Origin: Alphaproteobacteria bacterium
GTDB taxonomy: Bacteria; Pseudomonadota; Alphaproteobacteria; JAUXUR01
DNA length: 64,000 nt
Reading direction: 5' to 3'
Assembly (NCBI GenBank): GCA_030696155.1
Contig: JAUYSY010000029.1
Location: 4,059-68,058 of the forward strand
The number at the start of each line of letters is the position of its first letter. Within the stretch, counting starts at the first letter, position 1. Shown here in pieces: positions 53,509-58,345 of this stretch. A model generated the notes under the pieces. That model made no database searches. It worked only from the letters and a program-made list of their open reading frames with translations, and was not told the origin of the DNA. Made by a program: the position numbers and the translations under genes.

Positions 53509-53943
53509 TTATTCAGCTGACACAGGTTGTACAACAGCTTCCGCATGTGCTGCAGGTGCCGCATTTGTATGTACGTTTTGTGCATGTGCTTGAATAGGAT
53601 CTTTAATATGCTGACTTGGTGTTTCGCTCACAATTTGCGTCAATGTTGGTTTAAGACCTCTTTCAGCAGGACGTGCATTTGTTGAAACTTTTTTTACAGC
53701 ATTTTTAGATGAATTAACCAATTTATCAGAAAAAAGAATGGCTTGTTTTTCGCTTGGATGTCCTTTTTCAGGCGCAATATGTTGATGATCAGCAGACACA
53801 ATTTGTGCAGATCCATCCTTATAATGGTTAAGCGTAATAGTGTGTTGGCTGATTGCAGCAGGTTCTTCTTTTGTTTTTTCTTCAGAAAAAACGATATTAG
53901 AGACGAAAGAAAAAGCAGCAATAAGTAAAAGTGATTTCTTCAT
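53509..53943 (-). CDS. Small secreted hypothetical protein (Ala/His/Gln-rich)
   Basis: Signal peptide MKKSLLLIAAFSFVSNIVFS. GAGGA RBS. No family recognised. Confidence 0.45.
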   Translation of the reverse strand: MKKSLLLIAAFSFVSNIVFSEEKTKEEPAAISQHTITLNHYKDGSAQIVSADHQHIAPEKGHPSEKQAILFSDKLVNSSKNAVKKVSTNARPAERGLKPTLTQIVSETPSQHIKDPIQAHAQNVHTNAAPAAHAEAVVQPVSAE

Positions 53944-54162: not shown

Positions 54163-54801
54163 TTATAATTCTTCAAATTGATCTATTTTATCGTTATATG
54201 CATTAATAATACCCGTTGATAAATCAAAAAACCAACCATGGATAATTAAATTGTTTTTTTGAACATTTTCCTTAATCCATGGAAACGTCATAAGATTTTT
54301 GAGTGAGTTTATAATGGCATATTTGCCGCAAAAATGATTTTTTGCTTCTGGGTTCGCTTCAGCATGCTGTAGATAAGTTTGATCACAAGCAGGTTGAGCC
54401 AATTCCATCCATTTGGTTATAAAGCTATAGGATAGATATGGCGTTATTGCATGATCAAGAAGTGATTGAATACCAGCGCATTGGCTATGCCCAAAAACAA
54501 TAATATGATGAACTTTTAAATTACAAATCGCAAATTCAAGCGCAGCACTTGTGCCATGCAGCGAATCATCTGCCTGATAAGGTGGCACAAGATTGGCGAC
54601 ATTACGAATAACAAATAAATCACCTGGTTCACAATTGGTAATAATGGCTGGATCAACACGTGAATCTGAGCAAGCAATCATTAAAATTTTAGGCTGTTGT
54701 CCTAAACGTACAAGATTTTCAAAAGCTGAAGACGTTCCATCAAAATAATTTTCTTTAAACATTTGATACCCTTTGATTAAATCTTCTATATTTTTTGCCA
54801 T
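54163..54801 (-). CDS. Beta-class carbonic anhydrase
   Basis: Zinc ligand motifs CSDSRVDP and HSQCAG. Confidence 0.85.
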   Translation of the reverse strand: MAKNIEDLIKGYQMFKENYFDGTSSAFENLVRLGQQPKILMIACSDSRVDPAIITNCEPGDLFVIRNVANLVPPYQADDSLHGTSAALEFAICNLKVHHIIVFGHSQCAGIQSLLDHAITPYLSYSFITKWMELAQPACDQTYLQHAEANPEAKNHFCGKYAIINSLKNLMTFPWIKENVQKNNLIIHGWFFDLSTGIINAYNDKIDQFEEL

Positions 54802-54936
54802 AGCCTATTTTCCTTTATTAAAATATATTTAGTCGTACCATAAAATTTAAGAAATAAAAAAGACATAATAGTTGACTATTTTTTAATTCTATTGTATCTT
54901 TCTTGTATTTATTAAAAATGAAAAAAGGAACTTCAA

Positions 54937-57465
54937 ATGAAAAAATTTTTTTTTCCTCTAGTATATCTTTCTTTGTGTGGCCCGTTAGTTTCTGCATCAC
55001 CTTTAGAAAATAAAATTACAAAAAACTTTAACAACAACATATCAGGTTATCAAGAACATTTTGATAATGTAAGCAATTATGTAAATAATGAACTTTTTTC
55101 AACTACATCTAAATGGCATACCAATGAAATTAAAGAATATATCAACTTATTAAGCCAAATGAATGAAGAAGAATTTGAAACCCTAAAACTAAATATCCTA
55201 TATTTTGCTACGTCTTGTTGCTGTATGCATTCTTTTTCTTACACTAAATTTAAAAAAATAACTTTCTTGCTTCATACTAAACCAGAAGAATTCGATGATC
55301 TTCTTGAGTACAAAAATCAACATGATATATCGACCTCAGACTTTCTTCCTCTATTTTACGAAAAAATGGAAGACAATAAAGCTTCTGATCAATTGCTACT
55401 TACCGACCTTAAAACAAATAATGAGCAAACTTCCGATCAATTATCGCTTACTAACCATAAAGTTAATAATGAAAACCATTCTGATCAATTACCACTTACC
55501 GACCACAAAGTTAATAATGAAAAATTTTTTGATGATTTATGCAAACAAATTACTGCATCTCAAACAAAGGAAATAGTTCGTTGTACATTTCAAAAAGAAC
55601 CTTTCAATAAAAAATCAAGAAAGACAATTCATACATTGTTGTTAAATTTTATTAAATCAAGAGACTTTATAGAACTTGATGATTTTGATTTATCAAAATT
55701 TAAAGCATTATTCGGCCCTAACGAACAATATCGAAATTCTCCTAATTGTTGTCAATATGTTATAAATGCTATGCGTAATACGCATAAATTGTTTAATCAA
55801 CAACCAATATTGTTGTCTATCTATCAAGATATCTTAGAATTGTTTTTTAAATTACAAAATAACTCTAATGAAGTTTTTGCGTTTTTATCAAACACCCATT
55901 TAAAAGGAAACCTTTGTGTTAGTTTAAGTAATATAGAAACACAAATAAACACGATGATTAATGCTGAAAAATTAAAAAACATTGAATCGTGGGAACCTGT
56001 TTTTAGAAAAATAAATGTATACAATTTAGATCAACAACTGTTTAACGAATTATTCGAATTTATTTACGCTCATTCAACCCCCTCACAACACCTTATTGCT
56101 TATTTAGAGTTAATAAATAAAAATACATCAACAAAAATTACCAATAATTTTTTGGTAAAAACCATTATAAAATGCGATGAAAATCAATTAAGAAATGCAC
56201 ATCATCAATTAAAAAATATATGCAGCTCAACAAATTTAGATTTTAATTCTCATCAATTAATAGCTGCTTATATTTTATTAGCGCAAGATTCTTTTGAGAT
56301 TGCTCAACAATTAGAAACATATCTATTAAACAACCCTCAGCAACTTATCGAAGCGATGAAAGACATACACAAGTCTTTTCAAAAAAATGGTGCATCAGTC
56401 ATTTGCTATAAAAACGCTTTAAAGCTATTGATAAAAACAGAAAAACCAACTGATATTTCTTTGTTTTTAACATGCACCAATTACAATAAAGCATCTATTT
56501 CTTTTGATGATTTAGAAAACCTTATTGAAAAAAATATTAACACTAGAGATTTAAAAAACATTCAATCGTGGAAACAAGTTTTTCAACTTTTAGATATGTA
56601 TTGTTTACCTGAAAATTTATTTAATAATTTTTTAGACTTTGCGTCTTTATATTCAGAACCTCCACGTTCGCTTGTTTATTATTTAAAACTTATATGCCGC
56701 GGAACAAAAAATAAAATCACGAACATTTCTCTTGTCAAAACTATCATGAAAGTCAATCAATACGGAGAAGCAAGTGCCAAATTAAAAGATATTTTGTATT
56801 TATTAAAAGATATAAGTCTATATGAAAATTCAGGTATAATAAAATATTTTGGTTTTTTAAATCAATACGAAGAAAATATGTATTATAAAGCGCATTCTAA
56901 GTTAACTGATCTTTATTCAAGCGCATTGATTCCTAACGAGATTAAAGAGAATTTACTTAGATACATTCATATTTCAATTGAATATGGACGAAACGATTCA
57001 GAACTATGTTGTCTTGGAGCATTACGTGCACAGCATCTCTACAAAACCATTGAACCATATGATTTATTAAAAGAACATGCTTCTGTTACTCAAAAACGAT
57101 TACATGACAATGCAATATATAATATAAAAAACTTGAGAAATATTATCTATGATTTATCTTTTTCTTCACTTCAATCAATTGCAAATACTATTTTGTTGGC
57201 ACAAGAATCTCCAGAACTTCAAAAACGATTAAATTATACAATCGAAAAATTGCCTTTCTATTCATTAATGAATGAAAATAAGGTTAAAGTCAATCTACGT
57301 CAACATTTAAATTTTGTTTTTCAAAACAAAATACCTGAACCAAGAAAAAAATATAAGTTTAAATTAAAAAAATATTTAAACTTTATTTTAAATATGACAG
57401 AAGAGACGTTTAATTTGTTAATCGTTGACAACAATAAAGATTTTAACGATTTTAGAAATCATTAA
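54937..57465 (+). CDS. Large secreted Asn/Lys-rich hypothetical protein with internal duplications
   Basis: Signal peptide MKKFFFPLVYLSLCGPLVSA (RBS aaagga). Three tandem 16-aa units SDQLxLT(D/N)(L/H)K(T/V)NNE. Two ~105-aa paralogous segments (…NIESWEPVFRKINVYNLDQQLFNELFEF… / …NIQSWKQVFQLLDMYCLPENLFNNFLDF…). Confidence 0.55.
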   Translation: MKKFFFPLVYLSLCGPLVSASPLENKITKNFNNNISGYQEHFDNVSNYVNNELFSTTSKWHTNEIKEYINLLSQMNEEEFETLKLNILYFATSCCCMHSFSYTKFKKITFLLHTKPEEFDDLLEYKNQHDISTSDFLPLFYEKMEDNKASDQLLLTDLKTNNEQTSDQLSLTNHKVNNENHSDQLPLTDHKVNNEKFFDDLCKQITASQTKEIVRCTFQKEPFNKKSRKTIHTLLLNFIKSRDFIELDDFDLSKFKALFGPNEQYRNSPNCCQYVINAMRNTHKLFNQQPILLSIYQDILELFFKLQNNSNEVFAFLSNTHLKGNLCVSLSNIETQINTMINAEKLKNIESWEPVFRKINVYNLDQQLFNELFEFIYAHSTPSQHLIAYLELINKNTSTKITNNFLVKTIIKCDENQLRNAHHQLKNICSSTNLDFNSHQLIAAYILLAQDSFEIAQQLETYLLNNPQQLIEAMKDIHKSFQKNGASVICYKNALKLLIKTEKPTDISLFLTCTNYNKASISFDDLENLIEKNINTRDLKNIQSWKQVFQLLDMYCLPENLFNNFLDFASLYSEPPRSLVYYLKLICRGTKNKITNISLVKTIMKVNQYGEASAKLKDILYLLKDISLYENSGIIKYFGFLNQYEENMYYKAHSKLTDLYSSALIPNEIKENLLRYIHISIEYGRNDSELCCLGALRAQHLYKTIEPYDLLKEHASVTQKRLHDNAIYNIKNLRNIIYDLSFSSLQSIANTILLAQESPELQKRLNYTIEKLPFYSLMNENKVKVNLRQHLNFVFQNKIPEPRKKYKFKLKKYLNFILNMTEETFNLLIVDNNKDFNDFRNH

Positions 57466-57488
57466 TACTTTCTTACGTTTCAAAATTG

Positions 57489-57560
57489 ATGCAATTGTCC
57501 CCTCCTACGTTCGATTTATTCGTAGAACGCAGGAGGGGAGATTCTTAAATTTTTACACCA
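57489..57560. repeat. Short family-C-related hairpin (cccctcctacgttc...gtagaacgcaggagggg) between convergent genes, probably a bidirectional terminator
   Basis: 14-bp imperfect stem sharing the cctcctacg motif and the agattcttaaatttt tail with family-C right ends. Lies between the stop of the 842-aa gene and the stop of the minus-strand methyltransferase. Confidence 0.5.
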
Positions 57561-58345
57561 GACCCTATTAATACATCAAAAGTCGCTAAAATCTTATTAT
57601 CCTCAATGCTAAAATCATTTACATAATTGTAACACATACTATCAAAAACCCTTTTACTTAAAAATTGTCGCGAACGTTGAATCATTGTATTTGATTCACC
57701 CATTTTTTTTAAATCTCTTAAAAGATTGATAGGGTGAGAATAGGTTACCTCAAGACGATCTTCTGTGCTGAGCGAAAGCTCAAACCCTGCACGTTTGAGC
57801 AAATCACCCAATTGTTTCACCTCTATCATCGGCATAATATGTGGGAATATTTTTTGAGTTAGACTCATTTCTGCCTTATAAAAAGATTCTTTTAATTCCA
57901 TAAGGGTTTCACCGCCAAAAAGACTCCCTATAAAAACACCATTTTTTTTAAGACTTGTATGAAATTGCTTTAAAGCTCCAGGAAAATCATTGGTCATATG
58001 AAGATGTGTAGAAGATAAAATCAAGTCAAAGCTACCTGGTGCAAAAGGTAAATTTTCTTCATCGCCTTGAATAAAATTATATTTTTCATGTTTTTTTAAG
58101 TGTCCAAAATCCATTATTGTAATATTTTGAAAGTTATTATTATTTTCTAAATAATCGAATAAATTACTACTTTTAGACCCTATGATTAAAACTGTATCAA
58201 AAGAACGATTGAACTCTTTTAATCTTTCAATAAGCCTTTCATTTATTTCATAATGTAAAAAATCAAAAGGCGGAAGTAAAGGTAGCGTTTTTGTCCGTAT
58301 CGATTTAATATAGGCTTTATCAAAGATTTTAGGTATATTTTTCAT
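57545..58345 (-). CDS. Class I SAM-dependent methyltransferase, hypothetical substrate
   Basis: Rossmann-like methyltransferase region (VLIIGSKSS..., DLILSSTHLHMTND, GVFIGSLFGGETL). Confidence 0.55.
   Translation of the reverse strand: MKNIPKIFDKAYIKSIRTKTLPLLPPFDFLHYEINERLIERLKEFNRSFDTVLIIGSKSSNLFDYLENNNNFQNITIMDFGHLKKHEKYNFIQGDEENLPFAPGSFDLILSSTHLHMTNDFPGALKQFHTSLKKNGVFIGSLFGGETLMELKESFYKAEMSLTQKIFPHIMPMIEVKQLGDLLKRAGFELSLSTEDRLEVTYSHPINLLRDLKKMGESNTMIQRSRQFLSKRVFDSMCYNYVNDFSIEDNKILATFDVLIGSGVKI

Follow-up and report, generated by a model that had tools for sequence, protein, structure and literature searches.

A family-less gene with internal duplications and a signal-like N-terminus in a small clade of uncultured alphaproteobacteria

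A gene that belongs to no recognised family and is carried by very few organisms raises the question of what it encodes, how it came to its place and how it has changed since. The gene considered here, Q8S31_02360, is found in a metagenome-assembled genome (MAG) of an 'Alphaproteobacteria bacterium' (assembly GCA_030696155.1, sample SRR13727522), within a stretch of 64,000 nucleotides of contig JAUYSY010000029.1 (positions 4,059 to 68,058 of the forward strand), which we call the window and whose numbering is used throughout. An original prediction, made from the sequence itself, had read it as a secreted, Asn-rich protein of 842 residues built from internal duplications. Our analysis reveals a real gene that is restricted to a small clade of uncultured alphaproteobacteria. 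The explanation that we favour, tentatively and at a probability of about 0.45, is that its product is a recently gained, Sec-exported, non-enzymatic helical protein with a binding or scaffold role, which would act in the envelope or outside the cell and track a changing partner.

Reality, distribution and origin of the gene

The reading frame opens with an ATG and continues without interruption over 842 codons, and the remaining five frames of the same interval contain 52-96 stops. At 26.5% GC a stop is expected every ~12 codons, and 842 stop-free codons would occur by chance with a probability of ~1e-32. Because of this improbable open frame, of an intact ortholog in a related lineage (L003, SRR7589087; 783 aa, with the same signal peptide) and of a ratio of nonsynonymous to synonymous substitution rates (dN/dS) of 0.50, the gene must be regarded as real and constrained. 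The original prediction had been made subject to an uninterrupted frame, and in the window the frame is indeed intact; among the three orthologous loci it is shifted in one (L002), and on this point the prediction stands for the window and only in part for the relatives.

Relatives of the protein are extremely few. When 1.84 billion representative proteins were scanned exhaustively with phmmer, two matches were returned, one of which is a true relative (P0002, 424 aa, 74% identical to residues 420-839). The other, P0003, is an artefact: it consists of 1739 aa translated from a perfect tandem repeat of eukaryotic origin, and its E-value of 2.5e-10 adds up 24 copies of a single weak match of 42 aa. 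A word-indexed protein search recovered the protein itself alone when it served as a single query, and itself and P0002 when a profile was used; no relative was found in plasmids and phages (tblastn), in viral contigs or in metagenome contigs, nor in the GTDB species genomes that were scanned with the neighbouring methyltransferase and glutamate dehydrogenase. Orthologous loci were reached through the contigs of P0002 and of homologs of the neighbouring methyltransferase, and synteny identifies three of them: one intact (L003), one frameshifted and one fragment. In the frameshifted locus (L002, JGI 3300055294) a deletion of 28 nt, which removes the conserved motif TNNFLVKTII of the first duplicated unit and shifts the frame, divides the gene in two; the deletion lies at positions 960-1000 of L002 after an A-run, equivalent to ~56135-56165 of the window, and both halves are open (323 and 424 codons). 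Either the gene became a pseudogene very recently in L002, or its contig was misassembled. The fragment (L007, JGI 3300055001) covers the C-terminal 299 aa, which are identical to those of L002. The family is unnamed and comprises three or four known sequences.

A plausible history of the locus emerges from two further relatives, L004 and L005, whose methyltransferases are 82% and 79% identical to the window copy. In both, the carbonic anhydrase gene follows directly after the methyltransferase gene on the same strand, with spacers of 216 and 35 nt, respectively, and no remnant of Q8S31_02360 was found in the L004 spacer. In the window, the 2.5-kb gene stands between the methyltransferase and carbonic anhydrase genes, on the strand opposite theirs. 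A neighbour-joining tree of the methyltransferase places L004 and L005 as successive outgroups to the clade that bears the gene, and for this reason a single gain is more parsimonious than two losses; most simply, the gene would have been gained by a clade-specific insertion in the common ancestor of a few relatives. Flanking direct or inverted repeats of a transposon or of an integrase-mediated insertion were not found at the locus. The methyltransferase and carbonic anhydrase genes of L004 and L005 point in the same direction with no more than 35-216 nt between them, and they may form one transcription unit. Transcription of the carbonic anhydrase gene of the window must now start in the 135-nt divergent intergenic region 54802-54936, because the inserted gene separates it from the methyltransferase gene.

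The rate at which the gene evolves is 4-8 times that of its neighbours. In the comparison of the window with L003 we counted 144 synonymous changes at 429 sites and 357 nonsynonymous changes at 1854 sites over 761 codons, which is the basis of the overall dN/dS of 0.50, against 0.14 in the methyltransferase, 0.09 in an SH3-domain protein and 0.065 in glutamate dehydrogenase. The ratio differs between segments, from 0.27 in the tandem repeats and 0.32 in the signal peptide, through ~0.5 in the duplicated units and the tail, up to the nearly neutral value of residues 198-273 (see the table). Identity at the DNA level amounts to 67-74% in the first 1.1 kb and 80-89% in the rest of the gene, compared with ~86% in the flanking genes, and its lowest value (67%) falls in the interval that covers the repeats and residues 198-273. 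Synonymous divergence is likewise uneven along the locus: dS is 0.31-0.43 in the 3' two-thirds of the gene and the methyltransferase (~55756-58345), 0.6-1.1 in the 5' third of the gene and 0.83 in glutamate dehydrogenase. A tract of recombination between the lineages might account for such a pattern, as might selection acting at synonymous sites.

Architecture of the predicted protein

An internal duplication is evident from several comparisons. Residues 296-428 and 491-619 are 38% identical over 133 aa (BLASTP, E 6e-21), a second collinear piece matches residues 420-459 with 725-765 (E 5e-4), and profiles of the two units built from the orthologs align with a probability of 98.6% (hhalign, E 1.3e-15). 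When six unit copies from three orthologs are aligned, the unit extends from I(N/E)AM..HK.F to a helix with LLAQ(D/E)S...Q..L. The original prediction had described two paralogous blocks of ~105 aa; the duplication itself is confirmed, its size is not, as the unit measures ~196 aa, and the motif string which the blocks had been said to share is reproduced in a four-copy unit alignment. The residues that are invariant among units are mostly hydrophobic, together with a few Lys, Asn, Thr and Ser, and because they are mainly hydrophobic a structural or binding role is suggested rather than a catalytic one. The duplication is older than the split of the orthologs, since the first units of the window and L003 are 67% identical, whereas unit 1 of the window shares just 34-37% identity with either unit 2. 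A third copy was found neither in the N- nor in the C-terminal region (hhalign), and no paralog of the unit was found elsewhere in the window with tblastn or with a hidden Markov model of the six copies.

The three tandem 16-aa units of the original prediction are recovered at the DNA level by Tandem Repeats Finder as an array with a period of 48 nt and 3.0 copies (55383-55524, 76% matches, score 149), corresponding to residues 150-165, 166-181 and 182-197. Both kinds of repeat that it had proposed are thus supported by alignment tools. The tandem array, which covers 48 of the 842 residues, is the only one in the gene, and it is specific to the window lineage: L002 and L003 do not possess it and carry at the same site a two-copy duplication of 129 nt with the pattern F(L/S)PLFY(Q/E)K...SDQ.... 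The insertion of ~110 aa that distinguishes unit 2 is also variable, as a block of 77 aa within it (residues 643-719) is shared by the window and L002 but missing from L003. Neither of the two large indels that separate the intact copies, one in the repeat region and one at the 77-aa block, disrupts the frame. The modular, repeat-evolving nature that had been proposed for the protein is borne out by these differences between the window and its relatives, and the comparison of repeats across strains that had been recommended as a check gives 48 nt x 3 in the window and 129 nt x 2 in L002 and L003. To judge from these sequence comparisons, the gene is probably a functional coding sequence, yet a weakly constrained and structurally plastic one.

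A signal peptide had been noted as well, and a signal-like N-terminus is recovered here by hydropathy and by the -3/-1 rule. We judged it by rule, requiring a positive n-region, an h-region of ~10-15 residues and small residues at -3 and -1. The N-terminus consists of MKK, the hydrophobic stretch FFFPLVYLSLCGPLV and V-S-A|S-P, the classical layout of a Sec substrate of signal peptidase I (SPase I), and all of these features are kept in the L003 ortholog. Residues 5-23, where hydropathy peaks, are the sole hydrophobic segment of the protein (Kyte-Doolittle mean over 19 residues, 1.49), and no other membrane-like segment occurs. We infer from this layout that the protein is exported through Sec and cleaved by SPase I after VSA, the cleavage position following from the -3/-1 rule; without its signal peptide the mature protein has a mass of 96.6 kDa.

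Searches for a known family agree with the original prediction, which had recognised none. Pfam and NCBIfam contain no match even at E <= 0.1, PHROGs returned noise only (E >= 0.05) and PADLOC gave no match. Profile searches of PDB sequences likewise returned noise, the best being a designed coiled coil (E 0.0027) and a nitroreductase (E 0.13), and the best Foldseek match to the PDB has an E-value of 0.7, which is not significant. The Pfam profiles of HEAT, ARM, TPR and Sel1 do not match the protein, and self-comparison shows just the ~196-aa duplication. An Autotransporter match in Pfam is missing too, and the prediction is all-alpha through the C-terminus, so that no beta-barrel domain is expected. 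A full-length AlphaFold2 model is all-alpha and unusable, with a predicted local distance difference test score (pLDDT) of 39; a model of unit 1 that used unit 2 as alignment has 12 helices, with a pLDDT of 57.6 and a predicted template modelling score of 0.48. No catalytic family or motif was found in the protein, and this, together with the mostly hydrophobic, structural character of the invariant unit residues, is in line with the earlier view that it does not resemble enzymes.

One argument of the original prediction does not hold, namely that richness in Asn and Lys points to a surface or effector protein. The protein contains 10.9% Asn and 9.1% Lys, and the residues FYMINK make up 40%. 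The gene has a GC content of 26.5%, compared with 34-42% in the housekeeping genes, and the deficit arises from codon positions 1 and 2, as its GC3 of 0.20 is inside the genome range of 0.14-0.32. The same pattern of AT-encoded residues is seen in four of the five other family-less open reading frames (ORFs) of the window (25475-28006, 31395-33404, 33638-34288 and 50142-51443). Because GC3 equals that of the genome and most family-less ORFs share the pattern, we attribute the abundance of Asn and Lys to AT mutational pressure acting on proteins under weak constraint; it is not a functional signature, nor should it be taken for one in an AT-rich genome.

The features of the gene and of its immediate surroundings are compiled in the table. 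A promoter scan upstream returned 28 sites, compared with 26 in shuffled sequence; this is no excess, and no promoter is claimed. The hairpin beyond the 3' end has the appearance of a terminator, and L002 contains a similar sequence as well.

Table. Coordinates of the gene, of the segments of its predicted product and of the adjoining features in the window (columns: feature, coordinates, strand, residues, remarks)
Feature	Coordinates	Strand	Residues	Remarks
Beta-carbonic anhydrase gene (Pro_CA)	54163..54801	-		left boundary of the putative insertion
Shine-Dalgarno-like site AAGGAA	54925..54930	+		6 nt 5' of the ATG, read directly
Complete gene Q8S31_02360	54937..57465	+	1-842	842 codons and stop; NCBI MDP3532113.1, annotated as hypothetical protein of the 'Alphaproteobacteria bacterium' MAG
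Putative Sec-type signal peptide MKKFFFPLVYLSLCGPLVSAS	54937..54999	+	1-21	conserved in L003; no canonical lipobox
Acidic helical N-region (predicted)	55000..55383	+	22-149	isoelectric point (pI) ~4.9; among the most diverged DNA between orthologs (71-74%)
Three tandem 16-aa units SDQL.LT(D/N).K.NNE..	55384..55527	+	150-197	48-nt period; predicted non-helical linker
Basic segment	55528..55755	+	198-273	dN/dS 0.97; 38% aa identity to L003
Duplicated unit 1	55756..56343	+	274-469	~196 aa; ~12 predicted helices
Duplicated unit 2	56344..57261	+	470-775	collinear with unit 1 from end to end; insertion at ~aa 609-724
Basic C-terminal tail	57262..57462	+	776-842	pI 9.85; 75% identity between orthologs; invariant NLRQHLNFVFQNKIP motif
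G+C-rich hairpin	57496..57541			between the convergent 3' ends of the gene and the methyltransferase gene; dG -27.3 kcal/mol, z -4.3
Class I S-adenosylmethionine-dependent methyltransferase gene	57545..58345	-		right boundary of the putative insertion

Possible roles of the protein

According to the explanation that we favour, the 21-residue signal peptide would be removed and leave a mature exported protein of ~97 kDa. In this protein an acidic helical N-domain would be followed by a short acidic linker of repeats that is disordered, by a basic segment under almost no constraint, by two modules and by a conserved basic tail, and the modules would be alpha-solenoid-like, each formed by ~196 aa of helical repeats and derived from one another by internal duplication. 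Such a protein might bind or serve as a scaffold for a quickly changing partner, be it a host, a predator, a phage or a competitor. The gene would have been inserted between the methyltransferase and carbonic anhydrase genes, and duplication, the expansion of repeats and indels would since have reshaped it. A solenoid fold, a role in binding and any location farther out than the periplasm are what we infer, and they are put forward as the parts of a proposal.

Several points weigh against this proposal. The N-terminus could be an uncleaved anchor, and the argument for gain over loss is drawn from a single-gene, unbootstrapped tree. Confidence in the models is low (pLDDT 39 and 58), and the resemblance of the units to solenoids is accordingly weak. 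In every segment dN/dS stays below 1, which lends no positive support to diversifying selection. The window showed no secretion system (no ABC exporter of a type I secretion system (T1SS) and no genes of a type II (T2SS) or type IV secretion system (T4SS)), and a host as the partner is speculation. Finally, the gene appears dispensable in at least one population (L002), unless that contig contains an assembly error.

Other explanations of the protein deserve consideration. In a diderm cell a Sec-type signal alone reaches just the periplasm, and the protein may be a structural or chaperone-like resident of the periplasm or envelope with a role internal to the cell, its fast evolution reflecting low constraint. 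A dN/dS below 1 in each segment fits such a protein, and so does the failure to find a dedicated secretion system (in the window), an autotransporter beta-domain or a lipobox. However, housekeeping proteins of the envelope are as a rule conserved from one order to the next, whereas this one is absent from relatives with a 79-82% identical methyltransferase and, beyond P0002, from 1.84 billion representatives, and it tolerates 77-aa indels and a frameshift; we regard a purely periplasmic role as possible, if rather unlikely. It is improbable that the gene, recently acquired or newly arisen, is functionless or decaying and that its repeats and duplications are the product of neutral slippage in AT-rich DNA. 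The frameshift in L002, the value of dN/dS at residues 198-273, a composition driven by AT bias and a presence that varies among close relatives would all be expected of a decaying gene, but open frames of 842 and 783 codons have been retained in two lineages that are ~14% diverged at the DNA level, at 26% GC and with a stop expected every ~12 codons. Moreover, the overall dN/dS is clearly below 1, conservation extends over the signal peptide, the two units and the tail, and the large indels are in frame.

Two further possibilities concern the route by which the protein would leave the cytoplasm. If Cys14 of the LSLC motif were lipidated, the protein would be a surface lipoprotein and a variable outer-membrane antigen. 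In favour of this reading, the sequence Y-L-S-L-C does not differ between the window and L003 and the residues after it vary, and the +2 residue is G or S and not Asp; yet L-S-L-C14 does not match the lipobox [LVI][ASTVI][GAS]C of PROSITE PS51257 type, as Leu and not Gly, Ala or Ser stands at -1, and a good SPase I site (VSA|SP), likewise conserved, is found 7 residues downstream, which makes lipidation quite improbable. We think it highly improbable that the protein is an effector which an intracellular bacterium delivers straight into host cells through a T1SS or T4SS, comparable to the tandem repeat proteins (TRPs) of Ehrlichia or to Dot/Icm substrates. It shares with these the tandem repeats that are short and acidic, a basic region at the C-terminus, the orphan status and the AT-rich composition, and other family-less ORFs are present in the window. 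Such substrates, however, have no cleavable N-terminal Sec signal, whereas a conserved signal-like segment is found here, and the 64 kb contain no T1SS or T4SS gene, the sole OEP and HlyD-like genes being those that flank two resistance-nodulation-division (RND) pumps.

A reading of wider scope, which we consider doubtful, is that the protein represents a young family, arisen de novo or diverged past recognition after transfer, that was approximately doubled in size by duplication of the ~196-aa module and would serve as a secreted factor for interaction with a host or prey, its fold being one that structure databases do not yet contain. If this were true, the locus would provide a clean, datable case of the emergence of a new gene and of its growth by internal duplication, with the empty ancestral site still visible in sister lineages.

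Known systems, neighbouring reading frames and significance

Two groups of secreted bacterial proteins are suited for comparison with the exported binding protein that we propose. The Sec-delivered effectors (SDEs) of 'Candidatus Liberibacter asiaticus' are small, mostly below 250 aa, and the repeat organisation of the Ehrlichia TRPs is variable between close relatives, as it is in the present gene. Like SDEs such as SDE1, the protein is specific to a lineage of AT-rich alphaproteobacteria, belongs to no family and has a Sec signal as its sole recognisable feature (PMC7662370); in contrast to them, it comprises 842 aa with large duplicated helical modules, and it shows no sequence similarity to them. 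Liberibacter is a proven intracellular pathogen (PMC7662370), whereas the source of our gene is known here as a MAG alone. With Ehrlichia TRP32, TRP47 and TRP120 the protein has in common short acidic tandem repeats rich in Ser, Asp, Glu and Asn, a repeat region that is likely disordered and an orphan status (PMC3417381, PMC8112483). However, these TRPs are type I substrates with C-terminal signals and without a Sec signal, in contrast to the signal-like N-terminus found here (PMC3417381, PMC8112483); repeats dominate the TRPs and form only a small part of our protein, and there is no sequence homology. By analogy, the protein may resemble the Liberibacter SDEs most in function and the Ehrlichia TRPs in its short acidic repeats, and it is a member of neither group. 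It may also share its architecture with alpha-solenoids (HEAT/ARM/TPR-like proteins, MIF4G and designed helical repeats), to judge from a model with a pLDDT of 58, although the repeats of alpha-solenoids measure 30-45 aa and the recognisable repeat of this protein ~196 aa.

The window otherwise contains ordinary alphaproteobacterial housekeeping genes, with a coding density of ~84%. Family-less coding sequence, including Q8S31_02360, amounts to ~9.5 kb of the 64 kb and is markedly AT-rich except for an ORF of 144 aa (53509-53943, minus strand), which has a signal-like start. The ORF at 31395-33404 (plus strand, 669 aa, GC 31%) begins with a hydrophobic, signal-like segment and contains a run of prolines, PVPPPPPPPLPP, which is followed by two ~35-aa repeats of the pattern ..(I/M)E(L/F)QGQ..KLK(S/P)AKDREL.P.K; a likeness to proline-rich or WH2 actin-binding proteins was seen by eye, found no match in Pfam (E <= 5) or in a phmmer search of the PDB, and is not used as evidence for association with a host. 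The same applies to the 433-aa ORF at 50142-51443 (minus strand, 13.9% Asn, GC 28%, signal-like start), in which 'DLACGFRAFGY' was considered by eye as an OTU-type Cys motif and was supported neither by Pfam and NCBIfam nor by the PDB. At 25475-28006 (minus strand) lies an ORF of 843 aa with a sub-threshold TPR hint alone (E 0.003), and at 33638-34288 (plus strand) one of 216 aa with a GC content of 24% and a signal-like start. Genes for tRNA-Arg (25302-25378) and tRNA-Leu (33506-33593) adjoin two of the family-less ORFs. A four-gene RND efflux cluster at 36786-45628 (plus strand) encodes a membrane-fusion protein, two 1035-aa ORFs, whose size and position alone suggest RND pumps, and an outer-membrane factor; the OEP and HlyD-like genes of the window are confined to it.

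A fast-evolving, exported orphan with internal duplications is a familiar kind of gene, of which bacterial genomes contain very many. The value of the present one is that of a well-bounded example, in which the empty insertion site is kept in two sister lineages and the duplication precedes the divergence of the orthologs. In no more than four sampled populations it displays three kinds of remodelling: independent repeat expansions, an indel of 77 aa and a frameshift. If the organism should prove to be host-associated, Q8S31_02360 and the five other family-less ORFs of the window would be the first candidates for its interaction factors.

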